Source: an uncultured Gammaproteobacteria bacterium
GTDB lineage: Bacteria > Pseudomonadota > Gammaproteobacteria > UBA9214
Direction of reading: 5' to 3'
Assembly (NCBI GenBank): GCA_963748215.1
Contig: CAVVHS010000006.1
Location: 832,001 to 896,000 of the forward strand
Length of the DNA: 64,000 nt
A program made the translations under genes and the position numbers. Every line of letters begins with the position of its first letter. Position 1 is the stretch's first letter. The notes beneath the pieces were generated by a model that saw only the letters and a program-made list of their open reading frames with translations, was not told the DNA's origin and made no database searches. Positions 4,291-52,515 of this stretch are shown here, one piece after another.

Positions 4291-4609
4291 CCCTGCCCCT
4301 TTCAACAGCAACTCTCGTAAAGTTTCATGAAGGATGTATTAACGAAGTCTAAAGTTCAACAACGTATACAGGAAAAAGACGGCCAGTAACATGGAATTAC
4401 ACTCAGCAAATTCGGATTAATAGATTTGTACTATTTTTGGCTTTAAACGAAGAAAAGTCGGTATAGGTTGGAACCCTTGTATCTGACTATCCAGGATTTG
4501 TCGATCCCAGACAGCCAAGAATAGGAATTCAAGAGAGTGGTCGTCTATGGGACTGTTGAGACTTCATGGGGTAAGGGGCCCATTAGCGCCCCTGTAACAT
4601 ATTGATATT

Positions 4610-4725
4610 TGGCGCGCCCGAAGAGATTACTCGGGGCTGCGCCCCTCGCCCCTGCGGAGCGCCGGCAGAGCCGGCGTTCTTCGCCGCTGCGCGGCTTGTC
4701 GAACGCCCGACCGCCTGGTTCGTAG
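4610..4725 (-). repeat. tRNA-Arg(ACG) 3'-half att-like site 1, split by a 71-bp hairpin insertion (4629-4699)
   Basis: TGGCGCGCCCGAAGAGATT|insert|CGAACGCCCGACCGCCTGGTTCGTAG; IHF consensus TATCAATATGTTA at 4595-4607 (- strand). Confidence 0.85.
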
Positions 4726-4845
4726 TTATCGCCAGGGGGCGTAACCATTTGTATTTTAAGCAACTCAGGCGTGGTCGCCCGTTGCATTCTGTACTACCAC
4801 GCACCACTGCGCTGGACTGATCCCGGCAAAAGTCCGGCAGGGTAT

Positions 4846-5852
4846 GGGTATAGGAAGCATAACCCACGTATCTCGCGAGAATCCACCCGGGAACCGGCCG
4901 CAGCCCACCTTGCCCGCCTCCCTCCCGGGCCGGCAGCCTGGCCATGTGAATCCATGAATACCTGCTTGCGCCTCGTCACACCCATCCGTCCGGCAGCGCA
5001 CGCGGTGCCGGTAGCCGCAAACCCTCACGGACCGGCGCCGCTTGCTCCAGATGCGCCAGAATCTTGCCGATCACCGCCGGGTCCTCGATGCTGGCGATGA
5101 TCTTCACCGCACCGCCGCAGGCCTGACAGGTCTCAACATCGACAAGGTGAATGATGCGCAGCATCAAGAGAGGGTGCCCTGGGGCATCCGGAATACGCGC
5201 TTGAAGCCCTGTGCCCAGGTCATCGCAGACCGGCGGGCCGCCGGCGTGTCCTCCTCTACCTCATCCGATGCCTTGCGGTTGGCACCCCGGCCCCGACCCG
5301 CCTTCGTGACCCAGGCCCGGTGTGGACTGTTCGGTGCGAACACCCCGTGGTAGCGGGTCAGATTCACCCGTGGCCGCGGCACCAGCGCCGCCAGGCGGGC
5401 CATGAAATCCAGCGGCTCGACAAAATCGCCGGGAGCGATTTTGAACAGCCGAAGGCTGGCCCGAAGGGCGGAGGGCAGGATGCCCGGAGTAACATGACGT
5501 GCGTGGTGCCGTCCCGGTAAGGCGTCTTGAGCTGGTAGCGCACAGTTCCCGAAGGCGTCAGTGACAGGCGCGGTTCGGCAATCGCCGGCCGGGTTACATA
5601 GCGGCACAAACGCTCCAGCTTCTGCCGCTCGCCGCGGGCGGTGGCCACCCCGGCATACAGCGAGAAACCGGCCACTTTCGCTACCCGGGCACTGGACTCT
5701 TCCAGGCTGCCCGCCGCCGGCAGGCTCTGCAGGCAGAAGGCCTTGCGCCCCTGCTGTGGCCCCACGGCAATACGGTAGGTAATCGAACTGCCCAGCACAC
5801 CTTCCAGGCCGGTCTCGCCCGCCGGCTCCAGCGCAAGATAACTGGAATTTTC
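4846..5852 (-). mobile_element. IS91/ISCR-family element, 5'-truncated transposase pseudogene with oriIS
   Basis: oriIS-type end ...ATGCTTCCTATACCC at 4846; LERLCRYVTRPA, EPLDFMARLAALVPRPRVNLTRYHGVFAPNS and CQACGG motifs; two small internal insertions. Confidence 0.88.
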
Positions 5853-5979
5853 ACCAGCAAGCTGGGCCCGATAGTTGAGCCATCTGCGCCAGTCGCTCCG
5901 CCATTCATTACAAATTTGTTATTCAGAAACCTGGGGAAATCATATTTAGTCTTTCCTGCGGACAAGTCCTATGCGCAGC

Positions 5980-7602
5980 TCAGCGCCCACGCGCCCTTCG
6001 TAGGGCAGTCGCAAGCCTCCAAGGGAACGACGAGAGAATTTCTGCGAGCTGATTATTTACCAACGTTAATTCTTCGTCTCGCTCGCTCACCACTTTCTCT
6101 AATGCTCCGCATCTTTCTTTCCATTGTGTGACTTCAATCTGGAGTCGCATCATTTCTTTTTTAGCCGCTCGGGACTCGTGCGTTAGAATTTCTTCTTCGG
6201 CTTTCGCATCTGCGGATTTGATGGAGAACCTATCCCTGATGAGCCGCTCTTTTTCGCTTAACACTTTTTGTAAAAGTTTCGCATTCTCACGCTCGCCTGC
6301 TAACCAGTCTGCCAACGCTCTGTCCAACGACGCCTCTGCTTTTGTTCGCTGTCCCCGCCGCCGCAATACTTTTGCATACTCTAATCGTGCCAGAATGTGA
6401 GTCGGATGCAGTCCTACTATTTGGCCTAACAACTCTTGGGCCCGCTTCAACTCCCCTTCCCGAGCATAAACCCCTGCGAGCTTCAACACCGCGGACTCAT
6501 CATCTGGTGCCCGCTGCACTACAAACTTCAGCATTTGTTTCAGTCGTTTGTTATCATGCCATTGATCTGTCTGCATTTCCGTGCTCAGGAACTCGATAGC
6601 ATCCTCATTCCTGTTCGTGAGGATGAGGCTGATTAAATAAATGAATGCCGCCGGGATTGTGGGATTCCACGGCGTGTTAACTGGCCTAACGGCTTCTCGA
6701 AACTCGGCAAAGATCATCTTGTATTGAGAGCTATCGAGAGCTTCCGTTCCTCTCAACCAGAACTGCGTAATATCGTACCTCCACCAATTGCGGATTATCC
6801 ATTCTGCTGCCTCTTCCAAACCTTCAGCACGGAGCAGATCAATTACTCGCTTCTTCGCTCTTATAGAGTCAATCGCTATTTTCGCTGACACCTGTCGCCG
6901 CGTCATCGAACCAGTCGACTGCCGATAATGATAAACTACGTCAGGAATAAGAGTTACACGGCTAGCACAAACCAGGCATTGCGCCAGCATCACGAGATCC
7001 CCGCCCATAACCAGGTCTGCCGGGTATCGGATCCCTTGTTTATCTAGAAAGCACCGCTTATATAGATAAGAGCAGTGACTTCCAGGGATGCGCCTCAGCA
7101 AATCCGACTCATATATGTTTGTATTACGAATCGGCATATTGACGCACAAGCCCGAAGTCTTTCTGACTTTGCCGTCCTCCTGCATCATGGCGACACACCC
7201 TTTCACCATCTCGCTGCCATTATTGGAGGCCTCTGCATAAAGAACCGCTAAGGCATATTCCGGTATTGCGTCATCTGCATCTAGATAAAACAAGTACTCT
7301 CCCCGTGCCGCTTCAATACCTCCATTTCTAGCCACACCCTCGCCATGATTAACATCATTTTCAAGGATACGTATCCTGTCATCCGCTCTTGCATGCTTTC
7401 GGAGCACTTGAGAAGTCCCATCCGTCGAACCATCGTCAACGCAAATGATCTCGATCTCGCTCAGCGTCTGCTGCCTCGCCGACTTCAAACATGCACCCAC
7501 ATACCGCTCTACATTAAATGCCGGTATGATTATAGAAATCTTTGGAGTTAACATTTTTTTCCTCTTAATCCTGTACCGGTTTTCCAGCCATGCCATTTGC
7601 AC
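5980..7602 (-). CDS. GT2 glycosyltransferase with TPR-like/coiled-coil C-terminus
   Basis: ISIIIPAFNVE, VDDGSTD, ARNGGI, LDADD motifs. Confidence 0.9.
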   Translation of the reverse strand: MQMAWLENRYRIKRKKMLTPKISIIIPAFNVERYVGACLKSARQQTLSEIEIICVDDGSTDGTSQVLRKHARADDRIRILENDVNHGEGVARNGGIEAARGEYLFYLDADDAIPEYALAVLYAEASNNGSEMVKGCVAMMQEDGKVRKTSGLCVNMPIRNTNIYESDLLRRIPGSHCSYLYKRCFLDKQGIRYPADLVMGGDLVMLAQCLVCASRVTLIPDVVYHYRQSTGSMTRRQVSAKIAIDSIRAKKRVIDLLRAEGLEEAAEWIIRNWWRYDITQFWLRGTEALDSSQYKMIFAEFREAVRPVNTPWNPTIPAAFIYLISLILTNRNEDAIEFLSTEMQTDQWHDNKRLKQMLKFVVQRAPDDESAVLKLAGVYAREGELKRAQELLGQIVGLHPTHILARLEYAKVLRRRGQRTKAEASLDRALADWLAGERENAKLLQKVLSEKERLIRDRFSIKSADAKAEEEILTHESRAAKKEMMRLQIEVTQWKERCGALEKVVSERDEELTLVNNQLAEILSSFPWRLATALRRARGR

Positions 7603-9288: not shown

Positions 9289-11964
9289 TTAGCGTTTTCG
9301 AAGCAAGAGTCGCAGCGGTCGTAATGCGGTATGCAACAAGTCACGAAGGTACGTGCGGGGATACCATTTTGACTTTCGCTGCACTGCCGCCCGATGCTCC
9401 TTGGGAGTCTTTTCAGATAGGGGCTTTTGTTCGGCTTGTGGCGGACCGGAGGGAACAGACCCCTTGGCAGTCTTCTTGGGGAGGGACTTTTGCTCGGCCT
9501 CTGGCGGGCCGGAGGGAACAGACCCCTTGGCAGTCTTATTGGGGTGGGACTTTTGCTCGGCCTCTGGCGGGCCGGAGGGAACAGACCCCTTGGCAGTCTT
9601 CTTGGGGAGGGACTTTTGCTCGGCCTCTGGCGGGCCGGAGGGAACAGACCCCTTGGCAGTCTTATTGGGGTGGGACTTTTGCTCGGCCTCTGGCGGGCCG
9701 GAGGGAACAGACCCCTTGGCAGTCTTATTGGGGTGGGACTTTTGCTCGGCCTCTGACGGGCCGGAGGGAACAGACCCCTTGGCAGTCTTCTTGGGGAGGG
9801 ACTTTTGCTCGGCCTCTGGCGGGCCGGAGGGAACAGCCCCCTTGGCAGTCTTATTGGGGTGGGACTTTTGCTTGCCTTCAGGCGCACTCGAAGAAGATGG
9901 GAGTGTCTTGTTTGATTCAATATCCAGGTGAAACCGCTCGAAAAGCGGAGCAGAAAGAGGAATCGCCGGTCGATCCTTGCCCGTATAGGTTAAGACCGCT
10001 CTACGAGGAATCCTGATCTCATAGAAATCGATAGCGACGGTAATGCTCCCATCAGACCCATCCGCGTCACGACGCTTTGTTGTATCTGCTTTACCATAGG
10101 AATAGAATCTATTTTTCAGAAAATAGATAAACATGTAAACATCATCCATGTTGACATCGGATTGTTTGTCAACCTCTTCACAAAAGCCATCCAGGTCATA
10201 GACCGAACTTCTCTTATTAATACCATCGAAGTGATAAAAAGCCTCCCCAAAGACAAAGCATGGCTTTCCCATCATCATGGCATAAATCCCGACTCGCGAA
10301 TTAATTAGTGCAACGCCGTCTGCCAATTCAAGCAAGTCGATAAAATGCGTGTCGTCCGGAACGTAGCAGGCGTACTCGAGTGGAATAGATTCAGCTTCAA
10401 GTGGATCCTTTTTACACAAAACGACCCAGCCGCATGTTCTTAATTTTTCGGCAGCCTCGTCGATGAAACGAAGAAAACTCTCGTAAGACTCCATTTCTCC
10501 GGCAAAATAGCGGATTTCAGTATCACTGGGCCGCTGCAGCGGCACAAATAGCACCTTTTTCCCACCAATCCGCAGCCTCGATGCCAAGGCATCACGCCCT
10601 ATCCTACCGCCCTCAGACTCCAGCGCGTTTACTCCCCAAAGGAGCCGCTTAATATACGTCTCGACCTCATTGCGTTGCACATCGGACAGTTCTAACTTCC
10701 AGTTATCGAGCGCATAGCTGGACGAATCAGCGCTGAATCCGTTGGGATCCAGAAACCAGCTATCAGCCAGGGCACCGCGCTCGAAACATAGATAGGGGAA
10801 CTTTGTCCGGCGGCACCAATTATAAATCTTCAAGCGAGCAGCGTTGGCATAGGGATTCGGAAAAAGAACCGCTTCAACGCCATGCTTCCCAAGCAGTGAT
10901 TCAAAAGCACGTTCATCCAGTTGATCGTCTTCGTCAATAAAATCTTGTTCGCTGACAAACAAGCGCTCCCCGAGTAGCGGGAATATATCACGCAAACGCC
11001 GGGCGGCATCCGTAAAAGGCTTACCAAAAAAGAGTATCTTGCGATACATGGCGTCAGCGTCAACCAAGGGCTCAGGATGCTCGCGTGTCTCGTCGAACTC
11101 TTTGAAGAACCTCTTCCAGATGGCCCGATTGACATCCATATTGCCGTAAAAGACGCTCGTCTTTGGCCTTTGGTGCCAGAGATGGACCACGAAAAGATTT
11201 GCCATTAATGCGTGGCGCCCAAGTAAGGAAAACTCTGAACGAAAGCCGCGGTAGTTCGTCGATTTCCATGATTTTGAGTCAGTATAGTAGTCGCGCGCAC
11301 GAGGCAGCACGCCTTCTTCACTAATCAAGCGATGGTAGAGTTCAAAGTCCTCGTATCCGTGCCCGCGAAATTCCGGTCGGTGCCCCCCAACAGACAGATA
11401 GTGCAGTCTGTCTACAACCATGACTGACGAGCATGGCGCCATGGTTTGTACCAACTGGCCATTCCCATTCAACCAGTGCAGATAGAAATCCATGAACCGG
11501 TGTGCCGGCTCCGCGGCAAGAAACTCTTCCGTCCCGGCTTCAGTTAGATACATGCAGGGGACAACAAAGAACCGCTTTTTACTCTTCGAGATCCCGAACC
11601 GGGACATGAATGTCAGCAACCGACCCCAATAGTCATCAGCGACGCGCAAATCCACATCGAGGAAAGTGACCGCAAGCCCCCGCGCCCGGCAGACACCAAA
11701 ATCCCGCGCAGCACCAATCGAAAAAGGCGCCCCCTCCGTTTCGTGATACAGGTAGCGAATCCCGTGTTGAACACAAAGTTGCTCGCTGTGAAGTCGGGTC
11801 TCCAAAGGGGACCCAGAGTCAACCACAATGAATTCGATCTGTTCGTTTTGCGGCAATGCAGCACACTGCTGTACTAGCCTTGCTGACAAATGCGGCAAAC
11901 CTGGATCCGCACGAAATGGAATGATTACGCTCAGGTTATGATTATTGAACTGCGCACCTGCCAT
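9289..11964 (-). CDS. Capsule biosynthesis protein: GT2-like N-terminus, KpsS/KpsC-like domain and repetitive C-tail
   Basis: SVIIPFR, VVDSGS, FLDVD, GHGYED; FERGAL..SWFLDPNG, VPLQRPSD, INSRVG. Confidence 0.75.
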   Translation of the reverse strand: MAGAQFNNHNLSVIIPFRADPGLPHLSARLVQQCAALPQNEQIEFIVVDSGSPLETRLHSEQLCVQHGIRYLYHETEGAPFSIGAARDFGVCRARGLAVTFLDVDLRVADDYWGRLLTFMSRFGISKSKKRFFVVPCMYLTEAGTEEFLAAEPAHRFMDFYLHWLNGNGQLVQTMAPCSSVMVVDRLHYLSVGGHRPEFRGHGYEDFELYHRLISEEGVLPRARDYYTDSKSWKSTNYRGFRSEFSLLGRHALMANLFVVHLWHQRPKTSVFYGNMDVNRAIWKRFFKEFDETREHPEPLVDADAMYRKILFFGKPFTDAARRLRDIFPLLGERLFVSEQDFIDEDDQLDERAFESLLGKHGVEAVLFPNPYANAARLKIYNWCRRTKFPYLCFERGALADSWFLDPNGFSADSSSYALDNWKLELSDVQRNEVETYIKRLLWGVNALESEGGRIGRDALASRLRIGGKKVLFVPLQRPSDTEIRYFAGEMESYESFLRFIDEAAEKLRTCGWVVLCKKDPLEAESIPLEYACYVPDDTHFIDLLELADGVALINSRVGIYAMMMGKPCFVFGEAFYHFDGINKRSSVYDLDGFCEEVDKQSDVNMDDVYMFIYFLKNRFYSYGKADTTKRRDADGSDGSITVAIDFYEIRIPRRAVLTYTGKDRPAIPLSAPLFERFHLDIESNKTLPSSSSAPEGKQKSHPNKTAKGAVPSGPPEAEQKSLPKKTAKGSVPSGPSEAEQKSHPNKTAKGSVPSGPPEAEQKSHPNKTAKGSVPSGPPEAEQKSLPKKTAKGSVPSGPPEAEQKSHPNKTAKGSVPSGPPEAEQKSLPKKTAKGSVPSGPPQAEQKPLSEKTPKEHRAAVQRKSKWYPRTYLRDLLHTALRPLRLLLRKR
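9433..9873 (-). repeat. In-frame tandem repeat, 7 x 63 bp (EQKS(L/H)P(K/N)KTAKGSVPSGPPEA)
   Basis: Seen directly in DNA and translation. Confidence 0.95.
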
Positions 11965-12436: not shown

Positions 12437-13235
12437 GGGTATAGGAAGCATAACCCACGTATCTCGCGAGAATCCACCCGGGAACCGGCCGTCTCACCGG
12501 CATCCCTGCCCCTGAATCCCCGCACCCCGGCCGCCTGCAGGCCGCTCCCGGCCCTCTGCCACCGGCTTCCGCTGGCCTCTTCCTTTTTGTAACAGCCATG
12601 GCCCGGCCCACCGGCCGCAGCCCACCTTGCCCGCCTCCCTCCCGGGCCGGCAGCCTGGCCATGTGAATCCATGAATACCTGCTTGCGCCTCGTCACACCC
12701 ATCCGTCCGGCAGCGCACGCGGTGCCGGTAGCCGCAAACCCTCACGGACCGGCGCCGCTTGCTCCAGATGCGCCAGAATCTTGCCGATCACCGCCGGGTC
12801 CTCGATGCTGGCGATGATCTTCACCGCACCGCCGCAGGCCTGACAGGTCTCAACATCGACAAGGTGAATGATGCGCAGCATCAAGAGAGGGTGCCCTGGG
12901 GCATCCGGAATACGCGCTTGAAGCCCTGTGCCCAGGTCATCGCAGACCGGCGGGCCGCCGGCGTGTCCTCCTCTACCTCATCCGATGCCTTGCGGTTGGC
13001 ACCCCGGCCCCGACCCGCCTTCGTGACCCAGGCCCGGTGTGGACTGTTCGGTGCGAACACCCCGTGGTAGCGGGTCAGATTCACCCGTGGCCGCGGCACC
13101 AGCGCCGCCAGGCGGGCCATGAAATCCAGCGGTTCGAAAATGACGTGCGTGGTGCCGTCCCGGTAAGGCGTCTTGAGCTGGTAGCGCACAGTTCCCGAAG
13201 GCGTCAGCGACAGGCGCGGTTCGGCAATCGCCGGG
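12437..13235 (-). mobile_element. Second IS91/ISCR-family copy (oriIS plus 3' part of transposase)
   Basis: Near-identical to 4846-5590; lacks the 71-bp insertion and has about 124 bp extra near oriIS. Confidence 0.88.
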
Positions 13236-43296: not shown

Positions 43297-43301
43297 TCAT
43301 A

Positions 43302-44033
43302 GTGCGCGCACTACTTCTCCTGGCGGCAATTGCCGGGCTCTATCTCGCGTTTCGCTGGTTCCTGACACAACCACGGAGAACCCAGCTTCAGGCGACTGCA
43401 GTGGCCGTCGGCCTCGCGCTGATAGGTTTGGCGGCAACCGGGCGCCTGAACTGGGTGTTCGCAATCTTCGGTGCCCTGCTGCCATTCGTGCGCCGTTTGC
43501 TGCCACTGGCGTCCTACCTGCCGACCTTTCAGCGGGTCTACAGACACTTCAAGAGCGCACGATCCACAGCAGGACAGTCTGCTGGCCAGCAGTCAAAAGT
43601 TGAAACCCGCTTTGTCAGCATGACCCTAGATCACGACACGGGTGAGATGAACGGTAGCGTTCTTGAAGGCCGGTTCGCCGGCAAGGATTTAAAGGCGCTT
43701 TCACTCGACCAACTGGTTGAACTGCTGGCCGAGTGCGTACACGAAGACGAAGAATCGGCAGCACTCTTGCGCGCTTATTTGGACCGGGTGCATGGTGACG
43801 AATGGCAAAAGCGGGAGCAGTCCGAAGCAGGTAATAAGGCCACGGGATTTTCAGCCGAAATGACACGTCACGAGGCCTATGAGATTCTGGGTCTCGATGT
43901 AGGGGCCAGCGAGGAACAGATCATAGAGGCGCACCGGAGACTCATGCAGAAAATCCATCCAGACCGCGGCGGTTCCACCTTCCTGGCATCCAAGATTAAT
44001 CAAGCCAAGCGCCTGCTGCTTGGCAATGGGTAA
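43302..44033 (+). CDS. Membrane protein with C-terminal DnaJ domain
   Basis: AYEILGL...AHRRLMQKIHPDRGGS. Confidence 0.9.
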   Translation: MRALLLLAAIAGLYLAFRWFLTQPRRTQLQATAVAVGLALIGLAATGRLNWVFAIFGALLPFVRRLLPLASYLPTFQRVYRHFKSARSTAGQSAGQQSKVETRFVSMTLDHDTGEMNGSVLEGRFAGKDLKALSLDQLVELLAECVHEDEESAALLRAYLDRVHGDEWQKREQSEAGNKATGFSAEMTRHEAYEILGLDVGASEEQIIEAHRRLMQKIHPDRGGSTFLASKINQAKRLLLGNG

Positions 44034-44149
44034 TCGCGGAACCGGAAGTGAATACGTCCCCGCAGGGTCAAAATACACATCCCACTCGCTCGGCTAGTGT
44101 AGGTCGTCAAACAGTTTGTAACTTATAAACACAGGGAATATAGCTGTTG

Positions 44150-44592
44150 CGTGACGTCCAAAATCGCTCCCGGCGATTTTGTCGAACTGTGGAGCCCGAC
44201 TCAGCCCTCGCACAAGCCAAACACAAAACCGGCCTGGAGGCCGGTTTTGTGTTTGGCTTGCCCGGAGAGATTACTCGGCCAAATTCTACTCGGGGCATTA
44301 CTGCCCCTCGCGCCCCTGCGGGGCCGCCGGCAAAGCCGGCGTTCTCGGCAATTGCTCCCTGCATTGCTCTACCTCCTGCATGGCCCAGGCCAGCCTCTCG
44401 ACCGGTTTCCGGTCTCACCTCCTCCCTGCAGTCGTGCGCCGCTGCGCGGCTCGTCGAACTCAACTGAATAGATACGTCGGGAGTTCGAATACCTGCCAGT
44501 ACTTCAAACACACAGAAGCCCGCGCAAGGCGGGCTTCTGTGTGTTTGGCGCGCCCGGAGAGATTCGAACTCCCGACCGCCTGGTTCGCAGCC
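44150..44592 (-). repeat. Tandem tRNA-linked repeat units ending in an uninterrupted tRNA-Arg 3' half (44546-44592); site 6
   Basis: Interrupted copy at 44254, intact copy at 44546, terminator-like hairpins at 44216-44257 and 44506-44545. Confidence 0.85.
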
Positions 44593-44813
44593 CTAAATCA
44601 AGGGCTATATCATATTATACAGTCACTTGCGGCGTTTGCCCCTCTCATGCCGCAGTTGACTTATCAATCACTTACGGTTGAGCGTACTTTCAAGTTAGCA
44701 CAAATCTGGCACACTCCACGCAGCAGAATTCCGGTTATTCTCTCCAGAAATTGTATAGACGTCCAATATACAATAATGTATATTGATCATCTATACAACT
44801 GGAGACTATTCCG

Positions 44814-45092
44814 ATGACTGAAACACAGAACCGTGCAGCACCGATTAATATCCGCGCCCGCCCAACTCAGCGTAACCTGATCGACAAGGCCGCTGCGATG
44901 CTCAACAAGAATCGCTCGGACTTCATGCTGGAAGCGGCCTGCCGTGAGGCCGAGAACGTCTTGCTCGACCAGCGCCTTTTCCTGGTCGACGACAAGGCCT
45001 GGCAGGCATTCGAGACACTCATTGATGCGCCGGTCAAAGACAACCCCGCGCTGCGCAAACTGTTACATGACAAGGCCCCATGGGAGAAGTAA
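44814..45092 (+). CDS. DUF1778 RHH antitoxin (TacA/AtaR-like)
   Basis: INIR....R.LID.AA....NRSDFMLEAA; palindrome TTGTATA-N9-TATACAA at 44751-44773. Confidence 0.9.
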   Translation: MTETQNRAAPINIRARPTQRNLIDKAAAMLNKNRSDFMLEAACREAENVLLDQRLFLVDDKAWQAFETLIDAPVKDNPALRKLLHDKAPWEK

Positions 45093-45574
45093 CGGCGCCG
45101 GAGCCGATTACAGCGACTCACCTCATTGAGTCGTTCTCATGCGGTGTCCCGGTGCTGGATGACTGGCTTAAACGCCGCGCGCTCAAGAACGAAGTTTCCG
45201 GCGCATCCCGCACCTTCGTCATTTGCCAGGATTCGCAGGTCATCGGTTATTACACGCTGGCCACTGGCAGTATCGAACATCGCAATACACCAGGGAAAAT
45301 ACGCCGCAACATGCCGAATCCGATACCGGTGATGGTGATCGGAAGACTTGCCGTCGATCAGCGGTGGCAGCAGGCAGGCCTGGGTCGCGGCCTGCTGAAA
45401 GATGCCCTGTTGCGCACCCTGTCGGTTTCGAAACAGGCAGGCATCCGGGCATTACTGGTGCATACTCTCTCGGAAGATGCAAAGCACTTCTACACCCGTA
45501 GCGGGTTTATCGAATCTCCGCTTGATCCAATGACCTTGATTATTGCACTGCAGGATGCTGCACATTGCCTGTAG
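45080..45574 (+). CDS. GNAT acetyltransferase toxin (TacT/AtaT-like)
   Basis: FSCG..LDDWLKRRA, GRLAVD..WQQAGLGRGLL. Confidence 0.9.
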   Translation: MGEVTAPEPITATHLIESFSCGVPVLDDWLKRRALKNEVSGASRTFVICQDSQVIGYYTLATGSIEHRNTPGKIRRNMPNPIPVMVIGRLAVDQRWQQAGLGRGLLKDALLRTLSVSKQAGIRALLVHTLSEDAKHFYTRSGFIESPLDPMTLIIALQDAAHCL

Positions 45575-45809
45575 CGGCGCGCACGGATAAGACCGTGGAA
45601 ACCGGTCGAACAATGTGGAACGCTATGCTGCGACAAGCTGTGATACGGGTAAAGCCCAACTATTTCGCATTACCCGAAGTCGAATGTGAACATTACCAGC
45701 TGCAGTTGAATGCAGATGATAAAGTCAATACTACAGAGGAGCAGGCCGCGGTACTGGACAGATTTGAGGATAGTCTGTATCTGTTATTGAATAGCATGCT
45801 TTTGCCCTT

Positions 45810-46193
45810 ATGGCATTGACCAAGGAACAATCTTTACGCGAGGCAATCACCCGCGAAGAAGCTCAACTCGCTGAGATTGCACACAGACAGGATGAGAGCC
45901 GAAAACGGTTGGCAGCACCTAAGGAAGAGCTTGCCACCGTGGAATCACCGCATGTAGCTCCTTTCGCCTCTGCAATACACCCTGGCGCCGACGTACCAAC
46001 CACCGCCGAAGGAAAAATCTCATTATTCCGTCAACTATTCCGCGGCCGGGATGATGTATTTCCATTGCTCTGGGTAAGTACAAAGACCGGTCGGAAAGGG
46101 TATTCACCAGCCTGCAGCAATGAATGGGTACGTGGCGTCTGCGAAAAACCCCGTGTGAAAGAGAGCATTTGTCTATTTAAACCGATATTTTAG
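45810..46193 (+). pseudogene. N-terminal fragment of an AEP-primase/helicase (TOTE-type) protein
   Basis: KISLFRQLFRGRDDVF..W...TGRKGYSPACSNEW..GVCEKP, truncated afterwards. Confidence 0.6.
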
Positions 46194-46254
46194 AATCAGA
46201 GTTAAATCTGAATGTCTCCTTTGTACGAATATGCTCACTTTTAGAGATTAACTG

Positions 46255-46390
46255 CCAATGTCTTCGATTACATCGAAATGTTCTACAATCGTACCCGTCG
46301 GCACAGCCATCTTGGCGGGGTCAGTCCGGAGGCATTTGAAAGTGCCTCAAAATGAGGCTGGGAAGTGTCTACTGTATCGGGGGTAGTCCA
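46255..46390 (+). pseudogene. IS3-family 3' remnant
   Basis: [23 protein letters not shown]; end ...GGGGTAGTCCA. Confidence 0.75.
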
Positions 46391-46753
46391 TTACGCAATA
46401 AGACACTCGTAGGGGATCTTCAAACCTTCATGCAATTTCCGGATCATTGTTAGCGTCAAACTTCGCTTTTTACTCAGCACCTCAGACACACGCCCACTTG
46501 TTCCGATATACGGCTCCAGATCTTTGCGCGACAAGCTGTTCTGCTCCATCAAGAACTTGATCGCTTCTATTGGGTCCGAGGCAGGAATTGCATAGTGCTC
46601 ATCTTCATATTTCTCAACGATCAGCATCAAGACATCCAGCTCATCGCCTCTTGGTGTATTGGGTTTTGCACCCCACAGCTCATCGATACGCTTTAACGCA
46701 CGGTTCAGCTCACGGTCATTTTTAACAGGCTTCAGTTTCATAATAAACCTCAA
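46391..46753 (-). CDS. higA: HigA antitoxin (HTH)
   Basis: DPIEAIKFLMEQ...RVSEVLSKKRSLTLTMIRKLH. Confidence 0.9.
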   Translation of the reverse strand: MRFIMKLKPVKNDRELNRALKRIDELWGAKPNTPRGDELDVLMLIVEKYEDEHYAIPASDPIEAIKFLMEQNSLSRKDLEPYIGTSGRVSEVLSKKRSLTLTMIRKLHEGLKIPYECLIA

Positions 46754-47061
46754 ATATGTTCAATATCCTCGATCTCGTCATATTCCTTATGGGTCCCCAC
46801 AAATCGAATAAGCATTCCATGCCGAACATAATCCATAAGCACAACAATTCTGTATTTGTTACCGCATAGGTTAAATACAACACGGTTGTTCTTTAAGATG
46901 CTCGCATTACGCAAGTCAGCCTTTAATTTGTGTGGCGTATTCCATTTTGCAGTTGCACAGTAGTTGTACCACTCCGTCATTTGCTTCTTTGCATCTCTGT
47001 ATTTCGGGCTACTCTCCCAAAATTTCCGCAGCATGGACTTTGCGATCACCCTCATCAACAT
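46750..47061 (-). CDS. higB: HigB toxin
   Basis: RVVFNLCGNKYR, IRFVGTHKEYD. Confidence 0.9.
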   Translation of the reverse strand: MLMRVIAKSMLRKFWESSPKYRDAKKQMTEWYNYCATAKWNTPHKLKADLRNASILKNNRVVFNLCGNKYRIVVLMDYVRHGMLIRFVGTHKEYDEIEDIEHI

Positions 47062-47070
47062 ACCCTATCA

Positions 47071-47112
47071 TGCTCCCATCATGGGAGCAATCAGAAATAT
47101 CCCAATATGGGA
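47071..47112. promoter_or_regulatory. Putative HigA operator palindromes
   Basis: TGCTCCCAT-C-ATGGGAGCA (47071-47089) and TCCCA-ATA-TGGGA (47100-47112). Confidence 0.65.
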
Positions 47113-47433
47113 GGTTTTTACTTCAGACCGGTGACGTCATGCAACAATGGGAACAGGGAAACCACGACTGTATCAGTACCTGAAGCGGGTTTTCACCACA
47201 CTGCCAGCTGAATCTCCACCCAGACGTGCTAACTTCAGCAACTCATTTTCCGGATCACATTGACGCCGATTTTTTGGAACCCTGTCAGTCACTTGATCAC
47301 GGATGCCGTATACACAGGGAAGGTATGCAATGACAGCACCTGTCCAATTAAATGGATGTTTTTAGCTCTATTGGACAGTCACAAAAAAACCGGCCTAGCA
47401 GAACGCTATAATCAGTTGATTTAAATAGTAAAA

Positions 47434-47610
47434 TGGCGCGCCCGGAGAGATTACTCGGGGTTTTGCCCCTCGCCCCTGCGGGGCCGCCGGCAAAGCCGGC
47501 GTTCTGCGCTCCCTGCGGTCGCTGGTCGAACTCAACTGAATAGATACGTCGGGAGTTCGAACCTCTGATGTACCGATAAACCAAAAGACCCGCGCAAGGC
47601 GGGTCTTTTG
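47434..47610 (-). repeat. tRNA-linked repeat unit / att-like site 7
   Basis: One mismatch versus the unit at 52160; IHF consensus AATCAACTGATTA at 47409-47421 (- strand). Confidence 0.88.
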
Positions 47611-47737
47611 TGTAGTACCTGAGAGATAGCATACAGACTATACCGGAGACATGGTTTACACATAAGGGCATTGGGGGGGATCCCGGATGCCATGGAAAGA
47701 GTGTAAACCGATGGATGAACGCCTAAAGTTTGTAGCC
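47611..47737 (+). mobile_element. IS481-family left-end fragment
   Basis: TGT terminus; MPWKECKPMDERLKFVA. Confidence 0.8.
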
Positions 47738-47961
47738 CCAATCAACGGGATATATTACTCTAACTTACAGTCACTTACGGCGCCTGCCCATCCAATGCCG
47801 CAGTTGACTTATCAATCAGTTACAGCTCACTGTGCATTCGAGTTAGCACAAATCTGGCACACTCCACGTAGTGTAATTCCGGTTATTCTCTCCAGAAATT
47901 GTATAGACCATCGATATACAGTGATGTATATTGATTATCTATACAACAGGAGACTACCCCA

Positions 47962-48240
47962 ATGGCTGAAACACAGAACCGCGCGGCACCGATTAATATC
48001 CGTGCCCGCGCGACGCAGCGCAACCTGATTGATAAGGCCGCTGCGATACTCAACAAGAATCGCTCGGACTTCATGCTGGAAGCGGCCTGCCGTGAGGCCG
48101 AGAACGTCTTGCTCGACCAGCGCCTCTTCCTGGTCGACGACAAGGCTCGGCAGGCATTCGAGGCACTCATCGACGCGCCGGTCAAAGACAACCCCGCGCT
48201 GCGCAAACTGTTACATGACAAGGCGCCATGGGAGAAGTAA
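47962..48240 (+). CDS. DUF1778 antitoxin, second copy
   Basis: Close paralogue of 44814-45092. Confidence 0.9.
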   Translation: MAETQNRAAPINIRARATQRNLIDKAAAILNKNRSDFMLEAACREAENVLLDQRLFLVDDKARQAFEALIDAPVKDNPALRKLLHDKAPWEK

Positions 48241-48722
48241 CGGCGCCGGAGCCAATTACCGAGACTCACCTCACTGAATCATTCTCGTGCGGCATCCCGG
48301 TGCTGGATGAATGGCTCAAACGCCGCGCACTCAAGAATGAAGTTTCCGGCGCATCCCGCACCTTCGTCATTTGCCAGGATTCGCAGGTCATCGGTTATTA
48401 CACGCTGGCCACTGGAAGTATCGAACATCGCAATGCTCCAGGAAAAATACACCGCAACATGCCGAATCCGATACCGGTGATGGTGCTCGGAAGACTCGCC
48501 GTCGATCAGCGGTGGCAGCAGGCAGGACTGGGGCGGGGTCTGCTGAAAGATGCCCTGTTACGCACCCTGTCGGTGTCGAAACAGGCAGGCATTCGGGCGT
48601 TACTGGTGCATACGCTCTCGGAAGATGCAAAGCGCTTCTACACCCGTAGCGGGTTTATCGAATCTCCACTTGACCCCATGACCTTGGTGATTGCGTTGCA
48701 GGATGCTGCACATTGCCTGTAG
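48228..48722 (+). CDS. GNAT toxin, second copy
   Basis: Close paralogue of 45080-45574. Confidence 0.9.
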   Translation: MGEVTAPEPITETHLTESFSCGIPVLDEWLKRRALKNEVSGASRTFVICQDSQVIGYYTLATGSIEHRNAPGKIHRNMPNPIPVMVLGRLAVDQRWQQAGLGRGLLKDALLRTLSVSKQAGIRALLVHTLSEDAKRFYTRSGFIESPLDPMTLVIALQDAAHCL

Positions 48723-48878
48723 CGGCGCACATGGATAAGACCGTGGAAACCTGTCGAATAATGTGGAACGCTATGCTGCGACAAGCTGTGATACGGGTAA
48801 AGCCCTACTATTTTGCATTACCTGTGCATGGCGAATTACGAGTTTGTACCATGAAAGAGGCGGGCCTTCTTGTTTATA

Positions 48879-48989
48879 TCGCGCGCCCGGAGAGATTACT
48901 CGGCCAAATTCTTCTCGGGGCATTACTGCCCCTCGCACCCTGCGGGCCGCCGCCTTCGGTGGCTTGTCGAACTCAGCTGAATAGATACG
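48879..48989 (-). repeat. Truncated tRNA-linked repeat / att-like site 8
   Basis: GCGCGCCCGGAGAGATT-ACTC...TTGT-CGAACTCAGCTGAATAGATACG. Confidence 0.8.
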
Positions 48990-49099
48990 AGAATAAGGTG
49001 ACGGAGGCGTTTTATTCCTTCACGCATGAAAAGAAATAGTGTCAGAGCACATTTTCTCATTATATTCGCGGAAAATGTGCTCTGACACCAATTAGCAGA

Positions 49100-49663
49100 T
49101 CAGAAATCGTAACGTCCGCTGATGTATGGCCCGTCCAGCTCCTGGTCGGAGGCAGCGCCTACCGCCAGGGACATCTGCGGCGCTGGATAGAAGCGTACAC
49201 CGGCCTTGATACCCAGCTCGTCGTCATCCCAGAAGTCGTTGGAGATGTACGAGATGTCACCTTCCAGGTGCAGGTTCTGCTGCAGCGCATAGCGGAGGCC
49301 GCCGCGCAGCAGCACGCCGGTGTCGTCATTGTTGCCGAACCCGAAGTCCGCATCGGCATTGATCAGCTGCACGCTGCCGACAAAATCCAACTGGTTGTTT
49401 AGCGGGGTGTGAAACTGCACACCGATGGTGAAGATGTCCAGATCGCCGTCTGCTAATGGACCGCGGTCGAAATCCATCGCGTAATAGGAACCGATAATGC
49501 CGAAGCCCTGGTTAAGATCGACGGCACCACCGATGAACAGGCCGTCGCCATCGCCCCGACCCTCGCCATAGCCGATTTCCACGTAGGTGTATCTGAAATC
49601 CCCGGCCATGGCCGGTGCGGTTGCCAGCAGTATCGCGCCGGCCAGAAGTGCCTTCTTGTTCAT
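49100..49663 (-). CDS. Small outer-membrane beta-barrel protein
   Basis: Signal peptide (AMA), alternating beta strands, terminal RYDF. Confidence 0.88.
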   Translation of the reverse strand: MNKKALLAGAILLATAPAMAGDFRYTYVEIGYGEGRGDGDGLFIGGAVDLNQGFGIIGSYYAMDFDRGPLADGDLDIFTIGVQFHTPLNNQLDFVGSVQLINADADFGFGNNDDTGVLLRGGLRYALQQNLHLEGDISYISNDFWDDDELGIKAGVRFYPAPQMSLAVGAASDQELDGPYISGRYDF

Positions 49664-50036
49664 GTGCGTCCCTCTACGAATGGTCTGAAATGCGCGGTTT
49701 GATTAGTGTACCTTAAACCAGCAGCCGCGTCGTTTGCGAACAGGTGTGCAAAGAATAAACACTTTTATGCAAGAATAAAGGGGACGGAGGAGTTATTTTC
49801 CAACTAATGGTGTCAGCACATTTTCTCCTTGATCGCGAAAAACCGACTCAAAGGGGACGGAGGATATAAAGTGGGGATTACTAAAGGGGACGGATGAGTT
49901 TTATTCATTCTGGGATTTCGCTTGAGAATATAACTCCTCCGTCCCCTATTACTCAATCCGCAGTTCGAGTAAAAAACCGAACAAGCCAGCTGTCATTGCA
50001 AAATTCTGAACACAGGCGATTCAATAGAGATTTGTA

Positions 50037-50744
50037 ATGGACAAACAAGCCCCACAATTCAATCCGGTATTGTTGTGGTTACGTTTTGTCATTCGCATGA
50101 GTTTATTTGCTCTCGCCCTGATGTGGCCGGCAGGCACCTGGCACTGGCGGGAAGCCTGGGTGGTGGTAGGACTGTGGTCACTCTTTGGCCTGGTCATGCA
50201 ACATTATCTGATGCACAACGACCCCGCCTTGTTAGCAGAGCGATTAAAGCTGGTTCCGATACACAAGGATCAGAAGACTTGGGACAAGGCACTCATGGCT
50301 ATATTTTTTATAGCAGGGATTTCACTTTATATCGTTCCCGGTTTTGATGTCGTGCGTTATGGCTGGAGTGAGCCATTACCCTTGTGGTTGAAGATAGTGG
50401 CCTTCACCATACACATTCCCTGTTTTATCGGTTTGGGATGGGTGATGCGTGAAAATACGTATCTGGCACAGGTTGTAAAAATTGACGAACAACGAGGTCA
50501 TCAGGTGATTACGACAGGTCCTTATGCATTGGTACGGCATCCAATGTATGCCATCGTTATCATTTTACTGTTCGCAGTGCCCGTAGCACTTGGATCACGC
50601 TATGCCCTGATCCTCTCCGTATTTTTAACACTATTATTGATTATACGAACATATCTTGAAGATCGGACTTTGCATGATGAACTTGATGGGTATGCAGCGT
50701 ATGCCAAACAAACCCCTTACAGGCTGATTCCTGGAATATGGTAA
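50037..50744 (+). CDS. Isoprenylcysteine carboxyl methyltransferase family membrane protein
   Basis: VITTGPYALVRHPMY, RTYLEDRTL..EL.GY..Y. Confidence 0.9.
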   Translation: MDKQAPQFNPVLLWLRFVIRMSLFALALMWPAGTWHWREAWVVVGLWSLFGLVMQHYLMHNDPALLAERLKLVPIHKDQKTWDKALMAIFFIAGISLYIVPGFDVVRYGWSEPLPLWLKIVAFTIHIPCFIGLGWVMRENTYLAQVVKIDEQRGHQVITTGPYALVRHPMYAIVIILLFAVPVALGSRYALILSVFLTLLLIIRTYLEDRTLHDELDGYAAYAKQTPYRLIPGIW

Positions 50745-50791
50745 ACCAATCAATGGGGTCAGACTCGATTGATTACAGAAGGCAGACTGCC

Positions 50792-51433
50792 ATGAAGAGA
50801 ACTTACTCGACGGCCAGGCACCCTCCCCTGCGTACCCTGCCAGGACTGGCTGTCATGGCACTCGTCGTGCTGCCGTTGCTCGCCTCCTGCGACGCCGTCT
50901 GCAAGGCTGTCTGCGAAACATCCCAACCCGCCGGGGAAATCGGCCAACCCAGGGATATCGGCTATGCCGTTCTGAAAAAGCTGCTCGACGACGAGCAGCA
51001 TGTCAAGACGCTCCGCATCGTCAAGTCCATCATCACCTTAAGCAAGGCCAGTGATCCGACAGCCGAGCTGATCGATGACATCGCCACGGTTTCCGCCCGG
51101 GGACTGGACGACCTGGAGACGCTGGTCGCACTCAGGCCCGCAATCAACCTGGACACGTCCAGCCAGGAGCAGCTCGGCAGCGACATTTTTAACGCATTGC
51201 GCGTGGCTACCGCCAGGGAACTGATCACCGCGACGGGTGACGACTTCGAACTCAGCCTCGTGCTCAGCCAGATCCAGGCGCTGCGCCTGATCGGCCAGTT
51301 ACTCAAGGAAATCCAGGAACTGGACCCGAACCCGAAGCGACAGGCCTGGCTTGCGCATCTGGCCAGTGACTACGAAACTCTTTACAGTCGTGCCGTTGCA
51401 CGCCTGTCAATCAATGGGGCCAGACTCGATTGA
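50792..51433 (+). CDS. Hypothetical helical lipoprotein
   Basis: Hydrophobic segment and LASC lipobox; start (MKRTYS) uncertain. Confidence 0.6.
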   Translation: MKRTYSTARHPPLRTLPGLAVMALVVLPLLASCDAVCKAVCETSQPAGEIGQPRDIGYAVLKKLLDDEQHVKTLRIVKSIITLSKASDPTAELIDDIATVSARGLDDLETLVALRPAINLDTSSQEQLGSDIFNALRVATARELITATGDDFELSLVLSQIQALRLIGQLLKEIQELDPNPKRQAWLAHLASDYETLYSRAVARLSINGARLD

Positions 51434-51464
51434 TCTGACAACCTTGACCGGAATAAAGGGGACG

Positions 51465-51645
51465 GCGTATAGGAAGCATAACCCACGTATTTCGCGAGAA
51501 TCCACCCGGGAACCGGCCTTCTCACCGGCATCCCTGCCCCTGAATCCCCGCACTCCAGCCGCCTGCAGGCCGCTCCCGGCCCTCTGCCACCGGCTTCCGC
51601 TGGCCTCCTCCTTTTTGTAACAGACATGGCCCGGCCCACCCACCG
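51465..51645 (-). mobile_element. Orphan IS91/ISCR oriIS fragment (third copy)
   Basis: Homologous to 12437-12614; no transposase sequence. Confidence 0.82.
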
Positions 51646-51804
51646 GGTATTCAGGGGACGGTTACTAATTTCCACTCAATGCCCCGAACATTTACCTGTC
51701 TCGACTGAGTGCTTGTAAACGGACATCTGTTGCCGCATGGAAAATATTCCTCTGCGCCCGTAAAACTCAGATAAATAGGTATACTGTCCCCTGACTCTTC
51801 GCCG

Positions 51805-52388
51805 CCATCGCGGCTCGTCGAACGCAACCGATTAGATAAGTCGGGAGTTCGAATACCATTCCAGACCTCAAACAAACAAAAGCCCGCACAAGGCGGGGCT
51901 CGGTTGTTTTGTGCGCGACCAGAACGAGCGTAGCGAGTTCAGGAAGTACTTGATGAAACGCCGCAGGCGGTTCTGAAGTACCCGGAGAGATTACTCGGGG
52001 CTGCGCCCCTCGCCCTGCGGGCCGCCGCCGCTGCGCGTCGACGTTCTGCGCTCCCTGCGGTCGCTGGTCGAACTCAACTGAATAGACACGTCGGGAGTTC
52101 GAACCTCTGGTAAACCGATAAACCAAAAGACCCGCGCAAGGCGGGTCTTTTGGTTTATATGGCGCGCCCGGAGAGATTACTCGGGGCTTTGCCCCTCGCC
52201 CCTGCGGGGCCGCCGGCAAAGCCGGCGTTCTGCGCTCCCTGCGGTCGCTGGTCGAACTCAACTGAATAGATACGTCGGGAGTTCGAACCTCTGATGTACC
52301 GATAAACCAAAAGACCCGCGCAAGGCGGGTCTTTTGGTTTATATGGCGCGCCCGGAGAGATTCGAACTCCCGACCGCCTGGTTCGTAG
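51805..52388 (-). repeat. About three tandem 184-186 bp tRNA-linked repeats ending in an intact tRNA-Arg(ACG) 3' half (52344-52388); site 9
   Basis: Reverse strand reads CTACGAACCAGGCGGTCGGGAGTTCGAATCTCTCCGGGCGCGCCA; period 52160 to 52344. Confidence 0.9.
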
Positions 52389-52515
52389 TTAGCAAGTGAA
52401 TCGCTAACTTTTTGTTTCTTAAAGTAGATTACTGGAATGCCCGTTGCCCATTTTGCCTAACAAAGCAGGACGATGCATAACTGAATCCCGCAAAAGTCCC
52501 GCAAGCCATTTCATG

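Follow-up and report, generated by a model that had tools for sequence, protein, structure and literature searches.

In Dehalococcoides, many co-oriented direct repeats of the 3' end of the tRNA-like gene ssrA occur within 100 kb downstream of that gene, each bounding an island of cargo genes, and fifteen islands that have no integration module have been discussed as possible cis-mobilizable elements (CIMEs) joined by accretion (PMC3146451). A comparable array was found in a 64,000-nt stretch of DNA from an uncultured gammaproteobacterium of the lineage UBA9214 (contig CAVVHS010000006.1 of assembly GCA_963748215.1, positions 832,001 to 896,000), hereafter called the window. In it, 3' parts of tRNA-Arg(ACG) alternate with intervals of cargo genes, and more than half of the supposed tRNA 3' halves are units related to the E. 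coli RtT repeat, each with its own copy of the tRNA 3' end. The window probably holds most of a decayed stack of tRNA-Arg(ACG) islands of about 77 kb, together with a layer of RtT-family elements, joined to a tRNA-Pro(GGG) gene. Serial site-specific integration at the tRNA-Arg(ACG) gene is well supported. Integrase-less island stacks at tRNA genes are already known, and the array is a further example. New are an RtT-type element seen as a discrete T-loop-targeted insertion, with a clean filled and empty pair in one genome, and an Arg array that abuts tRNA-Pro(GGG) in this assembly, while the intact tRNA-Arg and an array of Pro fragments lie elsewhere.

CIMEs and their tandem accretion are said to have been described by Pavlovic et al. 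in 2004. Like CIMEs, the intervals of the window are flanked by attachment (att) sites, are missing an integrase of their own, would have arisen by deletion and stand in tandem with related elements. The interval at 44.7-47.4 kb, with att-type sites on both sides and neither integrase nor transfer genes, has the anatomy of a CIME; several other intervals have truncated sites. Trans mobilisation has been shown for the streptococcal cases, whereas here a search of the whole host genome with one family profile, PF00589, found no helper integrase. The Dehalococcoides ssrA array resembles the window in its tandem accretion, its cis-mobilizable remnants and its cargo-bounding repeats, but it involves a serine recombinase that many islands have kept, a 20-bp repeat and an array still attached to ssrA (PMC3146451). 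The junctions of the window, in contrast, carry arms of tyrosine-integrase type and integration host factor (IHF) sites, no integrase survives, RtT-like inserts are present and the array is detached from its tRNA gene. Integrons likewise form a one-way array of small promoter-poor modules between structured recombination sites; in the window, however, the modules are kept apart by tRNA 3' parts that bear arm-type motifs, and there is no IntI, attI or attC-type site, the PF00589 search of the host genome having revealed no IntI with an attI beside the array.

RtT RNA was first described decades ago, and the RtT/tyrT repeats of E. coli were reportedly described by Bosl and Kersten in 1991. The units of the window share with these repeats (RF00391) a 5' T-arm piece that stops at TTCGA, a set of three or four GC-rich hairpins, conserved linkers (GAACG and GAGTA), closure by the last 19 nt of the neighbouring tRNA, a frequent tandem arrangement and mutual detection by covariance model. 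The E. coli units form compact tandem runs inside tRNA operons, whereas those of the window are distributed over 77 kb at island junctions, also break up fragments running from anticodon loop to CCA and, in one case, lie in a protein-coding gene. Two later sources restate the 1991 description of the E. coli repeat (10.1101/2024.07.17.603846; PMC3318445). In the open-access literature (supplements excluded), no paper was found that attributes mobility to RtT-like units or places them within the att sites of islands.

Redundant tRNA-Arg(ACG) fragments and attachment-site motifs

Contigs C1-C9 below are those of the host genome (G000; 3.5 Mb, 9 contigs); G002, G003, G007, G008, G012 and G013 are genomes of relatives, and L-numbers (L029, L034, L040 etc.) denote single loci, of which L029 and L040 come from metagenome-assembled genomes (MAGs). 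A search with the 19-nt 3' end of tRNA-Arg(ACG), allowing at most 3 mismatches, found 10 copies in the window (4610, 15969, 26833, 42054, 44254, 44546, 47434, 48879, 52160 and 52344), all on the minus strand. By chance 0.03 would be expected, and 10 copies were reached in none of 100 shuffles. Two more degenerate copies of the tRNA end, also on the minus strand, were spotted by eye at about 36252 and 51975, and the original prediction of about nine co-oriented fragments is thereby borne out. Across the host genome the same search gave 14 matches, namely the 10 of the window, the sole true tRNA-Arg(ACG) (C5:2666-2742), two unrelated sequences with 3 mismatches and a thirteenth fragment at C6:807087. 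The latter lies on the minus strand 25 kb left of the window, so that the array spans about 77 kb (C6:807087-884388). The only tRNA that ARAGORN called in the window is tRNA-Pro(GGG) (58561-58637, minus strand); it called no tRNA-Arg. Co-oriented direct repeats of a tRNA 3' part thus bound the islands, as in tandem islands at tRNA genes.

The fragments had been proposed to be 3' halves that, where complete, end at the anticodon loop, which holds for only six copies. Four of these begin with CTACGAACC (52388, 42303, 36544 and 4725), and at 44587 and 27095 identity begins from CGAACC, 3 nt later and 2 nt before the loop end. Uninterrupted 3' halves are found only at 52388-52344 and 44590-44546. 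At 4725, 27098 and 36544 the tRNA sequence runs from the anticodon loop to the T-loop GAGTTCGA, gives way to GC-rich hairpins over 70-230 nt and then picks up again at AATCTC...CCA. The remaining copies open with an inverted T-arm piece, a short spacer and GAGTTCGA, ahead of the same hairpins; their start lies inside a repeat unit, and they are not halves.

Attachment-type motifs accompany the fragments. The IHF consensus WATCAANNNNTTR occurs at 8 sites in the window against 1.17 expected (8 reached in 0 of 100 shuffles), and 6 of the 8 adjoin junctions: the four that had been predicted (4595, 44662, 47409 and 47810) plus 42373 and 58355. Three families of arm motifs recur, where at least four had been proposed. 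The supposed fourth, a likeness between 36125 and 41925, gave no match in a direct blastn comparison, and both positions match one stretch of G003:C123. The arm GCGGGACTTTTGCGGGA is exact at 52486, as predicted, and at 58473; its proposed copy at 4821 was found at 4822 with 3 mismatches. The arm TTAGCACAAATCTGGCACA is a real family, exact at 44695 and 47843, for which the proposed coordinates were 27101, 44593 and 47738; some of these are about 100 nt off, and the places mark a homologous core-proximal arm instead. Arms of TGTCCAATAG type lie at 15904, 15923, 27299, 41828, 41846, 42405 and 47368.

RtT-like units and their T-loop target

In RtT-like units, hairpins of about 70-230 nt are situated at TTCGA^A of the T-loop, and the units are homologous to the tyrT and argV repeats of E. 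coli. Since every such unit carries a tRNA 3' end of its own, counting fragments gives too high a figure for integrations; of the predicted series of at least nine, integration itself is upheld by arms, IHF sites and relatives, and the number is inflated. Three copies exceed the Rfam gathering score of RF02902 (Aggregatibacter sRNA 22; 39.8 bits) with 41.5, 40.5 and 40.1 bits, and two more fall below it; full-length matches to RF00391 (RtT) reach 28.8 and 26.1 bits, below the gathering score of 45 bits. The same units match both families (47425-47527, 52170-52253 and 44275-44364, as well as L009 and L018), which appear to describe one repeat family.

A covariance model, R1, was built from 15 RtT-like units, all from the host genome (alignment A1), with no E. 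coli sequences included. In E. coli K-12, the tyrT-tyrV-rttR and serV-argVYZQ loci share one build (...GGTTCGA C, hairpins, GAGTAAT and the last 19 nt of the tRNA), and R1 finds four of the four tyrT-locus units (42-50 bits) and three serV-arg units (22.6-32.8 bits). Furthermore, when 150 other gammaproteobacterial families were sampled, 55 had an R1 match at a cut-off of E<=1e-4, frequently as tandem runs. Together with the E. coli matches, this distribution indicates that the homology is real and that the family is old and common. Compensatory change was found in 7 of the 14 predicted pairs of A1; RNA folding of single units gave z-scores of -1.6 to -2.8, which are not decisive, and the covariation in the alignment was therefore relied on instead.

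In the host genome, the family also lies beside tRNAs Arg-CCG, Gln, Ser-GCT, Ser-GGA, Ser-CGA, Glu, Val and Ser-TGA, each copy ending in the end of its own tRNA, and at fragments of tRNAs Pro-GGG and Lys-TTT. In two tRNA-Ser genes the element sits in the D-loop of 5' copies (GGTCGA^AAGC and GGTTGA^AGG). The cut point TCGA^A is constant across T-loops (Arg, Pro, Lys, Ser, Gln, Glu and Val contexts) and the D-loop of these two 5' copies, and the orientation of the element relative to GG-TTCGA is invariant. Tandem runs with a unit spacing of 170-230 nt are the usual state in the host and in other Gammaproteobacteria.

A discrete insertion of such an element was found outside any tRNA. A 71-nt RtT-type hairpin element occupies 5421-5491 (plus strand) within an IS91-family (Y2_Tnp) transposase gene (R1 31.9 bits, match 5415-5511). 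A second IS91-like copy 7.7 kb away, 99.4-99.6% identical, is without the 71 nt; the two copies agree at 99.6% over 531 nt on the left and at 98% over 98 nt on the right. The empty site at about 13137 (13132-13140) reads GGTTCGA^AAATGACG and the filled site GGCTCGA(C...GGAGTA)ACATGACG. The same IS91 site is empty in G007 (GATTCGA^ACACC) and filled in G008, where the element is identical at 70 of 70 positions and the flanks are only about 85-90% alike. From these sequences it is concluded that the hairpin element is still mobile or was so until recently, its target being a T-loop-like sequence. Rolling-circle targeting by IS91, whose target is GTTC/CTTG, was rejected as the insertion route, as the right flank resumes at A after TCGA and not at GAA after GTTC.

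The chances are slightly better than even that RtT-like units in general are widespread hairpin-rich mobile elements of about 70-100 nt that home to GGTTCGA^A. As a cell would presumably not survive an insertion into one of its working tRNAs, such elements would pile up in redundant pieces, namely att scars and duplicated tRNA ends. How they would move is a matter for a guess, the anatomy bringing to mind a single-strand route like that of IS200/IS605. Miniature elements of IS200/IS605 type (palindrome-associated transposable elements, PATEs) are similarly short, with subterminal hairpins and no terminal inverted repeats; they lie in one orientation just 3' of a short motif that is fixed, leave clean empty sites and make no clear target duplication. 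For the present element, no Y1 transposase with matching ends was found in the host genome. The host has five or six Y1_Tnp genes, whose flanks are other inverted repeats, including GTAG-headed hairpins resembling repetitive extragenic palindromes (REP-like); the R1 matches near two of these genes are tRNA-Lys fragments.

Several further repeats were also observed. Long RtT-like units harbour a second dispersed repeat, about 130-290 nt long (CACGACTGCAGGGAG...GGCCTGGGCCATGCAGGAGG); in the window it occurs at 26938-27098, 36384-36544, 42173-42260 and 44373-44460, and as a separate copy at 16061-16347, with many further copies in the genome and genus (e.g. C6:221442, C7:302914, C8:175655 and C5:233464). 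Upstream of tRNA-Ser(TGA), C6:477201-477600 holds three 172-nt tandem units, a 5'-side mirror of the usual 3'-side units, each composed of the promoter region with the first 22 nt of the tRNA, a D-loop hairpin element and 9 further tRNA nt. A third hot spot of the same anatomy consists of tRNA-Lys(TTT) 3' halves from anticodon loop to CCA, with the T-loop broken by the same type of element (C9:317917-318022, i.e. L065 3101-3206, and about C9:335110-335216, i.e. L066 2962-3067); these halves are bordered by GCGGGA(G/C)TTTTGCGGGA-like arms, and about 1.3 kb from them there is a pair of identical genes for a Y1 transposase. Another repeat family shares the hairpin modules CAATTCGCCGGGAGCGAATTGG, GGCCCGCAGGGCG and GAAGTCCAGGGATGGACTTCG with the RtT-type element (C2:7025, C2:32336, C3:751 and C5:41481); this family occupies the centre of a longer palindrome (GGGCGAGGTACTTTTCTTTG ... 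CAAAGAAAAGTACCTCGCCC) and is not at a tRNA.

Architecture of the junctions

All junctions (J) described here lie on the minus strand. The proximal one (J1, 52344-52502) consists of arm GCGGGACTTTTGCGGGA at 52486-52502 and an uninterrupted 3' half from anticodon loop to CCA (52388-52344). Two RtT-like units follow (51974-52257), at 52160-52257 and 51974-52073, each after a terminator hairpin and an inverted T-arm piece (R1 98 and 74.3 bits; RF02902 40.5 bits); unit 51974-52073 loses the tRNA end after CCGGG, and a third, shortened unit lies near 51790-51860. At 48879-48972, an RtT-like unit carries the tRNA-Arg 3' end with 1 mismatch and a truncated terminator (R1 22.8 bits). J3 (47368-47861) comprises arm TTAGCACAAATCTGGCACA at 47843-47861, an IHF site at 47810, a truncated core at about 47735, an RtT-like unit with tRNA end at 47434-47531 (R1 97.6 bits), a further IHF site at 47409 and TGTCCAATAG at 47368. 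In J4 (44148-44713), which is homologous to a junction downstream of the tRNA-Arg of G008, an arm at 44695-44713 and an IHF site at 44662 precede the 3' half at 44590-44546, a terminator, a long RtT-like unit at 44254-44373 (R1 54.7 bits) and another terminator.

J5 (41828-42414) begins with a TGTCCAATAA arm at 42405 and an IHF site at 42373, continues with an anticodon-loop start at 42303 joined to an inverted T-arm and a long RtT-like unit with tRNA end at 42054-42173 (R1 50.8 bits), and ends in downstream TGTCCAATAG-type arms at 41846 and 41828. It is a putative attP-like internal junction; arms on both sides of internal junctions such as 41828-42414 are expected when one island inserts beside another. 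The equivalent junction of MAG locus L029 has a plain 3' half, the window version being rearranged and RtT-bearing. Both J6 (36252-36544) and J7 (26833-27098) hold a 3' half whose T-loop is broken by a long RtT-like insert; that of J6 starts from the anticodon loop and has a degenerate 3' end, with a weak R1 match at 36473-36523, and that of J7 shows identity from CGAACC (R1 34.8 bits). At J7 the tRNA end stops after CCGGG, and the flank thereafter is the same as at 51975. J8 (15904-16086) combines an RtT-like unit with tRNA end at 15969-16086 (R1 38 bits) and two TGTCCA(A/G)TAG arms at 15923 and 15904. Finally, J9 (4595-4838) has an arm-like GCCGGACTTTTGCCGGG at 4822-4838, a 3' half from the anticodon loop at 4725, a short RtT-like T-loop insert, the tRNA end at 4610 and an IHF site at 4595 (RtT 28.8, RF02902 31.1 and R1 84.6 bits). 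Truncated or degenerate junctions are those at 36252, 26833, 51975 and 47735.

At both 51975 and 26833, the tRNA end is lost at the same CCGGG and continues into homologous yACTyCAGAACCGCCyGCGGCGTTTC. This common break suggests another element or a recombination site inside the acceptor stem.

Matching modules and junctions in related genomes

The arrangement in G008 is canonical, with tRNA-Ser(GCT), an RtT unit and tRNA-Arg(ACG) at 162791-163158 of its contig C5. Its Arg fragments occur only downstream of tRNA-Arg (159056, 146894 and 146705), at 3.7 and 16 kb, the last being built like window 44148-44600 (3' half, terminator, RtT unit, terminator), and its Pro fragments only downstream of its tRNA-Pro. 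In MAG locus L040, an intact tRNA-Arg is followed by a 0.9-kb toxin-antitoxin (RelE/HTH) islet, then by arm and 3' half and, further on, by the end of the DnaJ module of the window at 98% identity. In both G008 and L040, the array is headed by the intact form of the same tRNA.

Window segment 42291/42456-44068 recurs in L029-L034 and G012, with 82-96% identity and differing neighbours at six loci, 38561-41582 recurs in G012 and 16352-20272 in G008, and homology stops near the junctions. The comparison with relatives called for by the original prediction placed the module breakpoints (42291/42456, 44068, 41582 and 16352) 30-470 nt from junction elements. In addition, G003:C123 and G012:C382 carry mini-arrays of arm, (interrupted) 3' half and arm. 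This agrees with the gain, loss or reordering of islands at the repeats that characterises tandem accretion. In the host, about 10 kb (C5:2743-13017; a two-component system and other genes) lie between tRNA-Ser(GCT) with two RtT units and tRNA-Arg(ACG), which adjoin in G008 and E. coli; the host tRNA-Arg keeps a similar TATAAT promoter.

The joint with tRNA-Pro(GGG)

The proximal end of the array (52388-52502) is joined via insertion sequence (IS) copies to an integrase remnant, an arm motif and tRNA-Pro(GGG). The IS-rich joint (52514-58398) contains one IS (rve_3/HTH_32) twice, at 52514-55030 and 57172-58398; the copies are 97% identical, and the former is interrupted at 53108-54394. Beyond it, 58401-58637 holds a 94-nt integrase 3'-end remnant (58401-58493, gene reading on the plus strand), arm GCGGGACTTTTGCGGGA at 58473-58489 and the intact tRNA-Pro(GGG) on the minus strand (58561-58637). 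To the right of tRNA-Pro lies core genome conserved in five relatives. About ten tRNA-Pro fragments on the plus strand occupy C6:13-74 kb, with no tRNA-Pro near, and the intact tRNA-Arg is 2.7 kb from the start of C5. The core left of the array (C6:784-798 kb) is on the tRNA-Arg side in G008, and contig ends suggest the same in G002.

It is reasonably likely that this arrangement reflects a real rearrangement between two hot spots. The stack would have been joined to tRNA-Pro(GGG) last, via the IS-rich 6 kb, by a reciprocal exchange amounting to an inversion of about 870 kb if position 1 of C5 joins position 1 of C6. That join is inferred, C5:1-1500 and C6:1-5000 having no overlap at E 1e-10. 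The reading of the array itself is the same whether the joint is a rearrangement or a mis-join. Inside the joint, the 1.29-kb insertion 53108-54394 is absent from the contigs of four of four public runs, whose sequence passes from 53101 to 54395 by way of 5 other letters, and the difference is either an IS-in-IS polymorphism or one between assembly and populations.

Proposed history and alternative explanations

Tyrosine integrases would have inserted repeatedly at the anticodon-loop region of tRNA-Arg(ACG), the counterpart of the serV-argV locus of E. coli, each insertion displacing the older tRNA 3' part and leaving co-oriented junctions of arm, IHF site, tRNA 3' part and arm. The integrases and most island backbones would then have been lost and the cargo, with many toxin-antitoxin pairs, would have stayed, so that the intervals would come to resemble integrase-less att-bounded CIME-like modules. 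A second layer would be the RtT-family element, either inserted at TTCGA^A in the T-loop of most redundant fragments or carried within tandem tRNA-linked units. This element would measure about 70 nt at minimum, more where another repeat is nested, and would be a discrete insertion, found also in the T-loop-like GGTTCGAA of the transposase gene.

In agreement with the original prediction, no open reading frame (ORF) for a tyrosine integrase was found in the window, only the 94-nt remnant at 58401-58493. The PF00589 search of the host genome detected a pair of Xer-like genes, a gene interrupted by an in-frame TGA and two fragments, but no intact integrase of integron or island type, so that the proposed cognate integrase elsewhere in the genome was not recovered; integrase remnants outside the window lie at C5:2378-2533 and C6:48986-49105. 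The ORF beside the intact tRNA-Arg had no Pfam match, and the gene is broken. An integrase gene beside the tRNA-proximal junction of each island, a feature of tandem islands at tRNA genes, is missing here. With only Xer-like genes, a broken gene and fragments in the genome, and a broken gene beside tRNA-Arg, the stack is therefore regarded as a fossil.

Contigs of four public runs were placed on window 35501-55500; three runs hold the same strain, and run X7 is read as a relative because it holds a quarter of the words. These contigs break at every junction repeat and none spans one, and no convincing circle junction of the kind envisaged in the original prediction was found in them. Contigs that 'skip' between RtT units (e.g. 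44310 to 52011, in three runs) were rejected as excision products, as their shorter side measures only 28-37 nt and lies in repeats.

It is improbable that the array is a still-active integron-like or CIME array, from which att-bounded non-autonomous cassettes would be cut out, shuffled and put back in trans by an integrase that is encoded elsewhere or supplied by an incoming element. Such activity would suit the interval at 44.7-47.4 kb, which lies between tRNA end, IHF site and TGTCCAATAG on one side and arm, IHF site and 3' half on the other with no integrase inside, as well as the varying module order among relatives (G012:C382, G003:C123), the 0.9-kb toxin-antitoxin islet between tRNA-Arg and its repeat in L040, and one contig of run X7, from the related population, that goes back from 52504 to 36655 with a side of 31 nt. 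However, the PF00589 search found no intact integrase other than Xer-like genes, and there is no integron integrase or attI; the junctions at 36252, 26833, 51975 and 47735 are truncated or degenerate; the three same-strain runs, whose contigs break at every junction repeat, yielded no circle junction; and selection on toxin-antitoxin pairs during island decay accounts equally well for the small intervals that hold nothing else. Integron-like cassettes moved in trans, proposed initially as an alternative to serial integration, thus have no positive support from the PF00589 search or the contigs of the four runs. Still less probable is an origin without serial integration, in which a native tandem RtT run downstream of tRNA-Arg was split by unrelated insertions (IS, transposons, illegitimate recombination). 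Most tRNA-end copies do belong to RtT-like units, tandem runs with 170-230 nt spacing are usual in the host and other Gammaproteobacteria, and IS3, IS91 and rve_3 elements abound in the region; but six copies reach the anticodon loop, which RtT units do not, these copies follow conserved arm and IHF motifs common to junctions in other species, and modules in relatives end at defined points at these junctions.

The link between array and tRNA-Pro could also be an assembly chimera created through the IS copies at 52.5-58.4 kb, the array really following tRNA-Arg on C5 and the Pro stack following tRNA-Pro. This is rather unlikely, though by no means negligible: one wrong join would restore the G008 arrangement, the two IS copies in the joint are 97% identical, the ends of both C5 and C6 fall in the partner regions that would be expected, and inside the joint each of the four runs departs from the assembly by 1293 nt. 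On the other hand, the passage of contigs as long as 1 Mb through many 180-nt and 1.2-kb repeats points to long-read support, contigs of all four runs bridge 52981-53101 to 54395-55030 as assembled, indel apart, and C5:1-1500 and C6:1-5000 are free of repeats at E 1e-10, except for a 67%-identical 306-nt match of C6:2272-2574 to C9.

Several observations weigh against a decayed Arg island stack with an RtT layer that is joined to tRNA-Pro. That integrases acted is deduced solely from att anatomy, the arm motifs are matches to a consensus, and the count of TGTCCAATAG-type arms is not significant on its own (7 reached in 4 of 100 shuffles). The same RtT subtype at five or six junctions represents paralogous copies rather than independent insertions. 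For the 71-nt insert, no donor copy was found elsewhere in the host genome, and no transposase for the hairpin element was identified, the Y1 genes present carrying other flanking repeats. In addition, the intact tRNA-Arg is not at the head of the array, being on C5, and the proximal end abuts tRNA-Pro(GGG) through 97%-identical IS copies, the public contigs breaking at every junction and spanning none. A module of the Pro-fragment stack (C6:41.6-48.6 kb) sits downstream of tRNA-Arg in G008, so that island position is not a clean synteny marker, and the Pro-side flank could not be anchored on C6:75-95 kb or C6:112-124 kb, both of which proved to be mosaic or accessory in G002, G003, G007, G008 and G013.

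Implications for island attachment sites

In one respect the array is well preserved: it illustrates how a stack of islands is reduced by decay to short stretches of cargo and toxin-antitoxin genes, and how stacks may be swapped between a pair of hot spots. The RtT repeat, whose origin and function have been unexplained since its discovery in E. coli, becomes testable through a defined target, GGTTCGA^A. If the mobile-element reading is true, it would explain the 178-bp repeats of E. coli tyrT and RtT RNA, and RtT-like elements would be markers, perhaps modifiers, of island attachment sites. It would also offer a possible reason why tRNA fragments at island borders often look 'interrupted'. 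Island finders that count fragments will over-count integrations where RtT-like units occur.

Cargo intervals

The cargo labels given in the original prediction were mostly confirmed by Pfam. From left to right, the intervals hold capsule glycosyltransferases with IS3 and IS91 debris (4.8-15.9 kb), HlyIII/Crp-like/AsmA genes (16.3-26.8 kb), an SLT protein with an RND efflux triplet (27.2-36.2 kb), a three-gene operon with DUF6384 (37.9-41.6 kb), a DnaJ-domain pair (42.46-44.07 kb), TacA-GNAT, an AEP fragment and HigB/HTH (44.7-47.4 kb), a second TacA-GNAT (47.9-48.7 kb) and OMP/ICMT-like genes (49.1-51.4 kb). No Pfam match was obtained for 36430-37324, which had been labelled 'VapBC', or for 42589-43296, labelled 'VWA'. 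The small toxin-antitoxin-rich intervals (TacA-GNAT twice, HigB/HTH) fit selective retention during decay. The leftmost interval of the array contains a capsule-export cluster with a single type I polyketide synthase.

Within the toxin-antitoxin-rich interval, the 127-aa ORF at 45810-46193 is a fragment of a defence-type gene; its match to the AEP-TOTE primase domain, of a conflict-system family, is confined to domain positions 1-53. In-frame tandem repeats were observed in three further ORFs: 63-nt units in an 891-aa glycosyltransferase (9336-9947), 117-nt units in a 677-aa SLT-domain protein (27650-28117) and Gly/Pro/Met-rich units of 30-63 nt in a 312-aa ORF (24039-24593).

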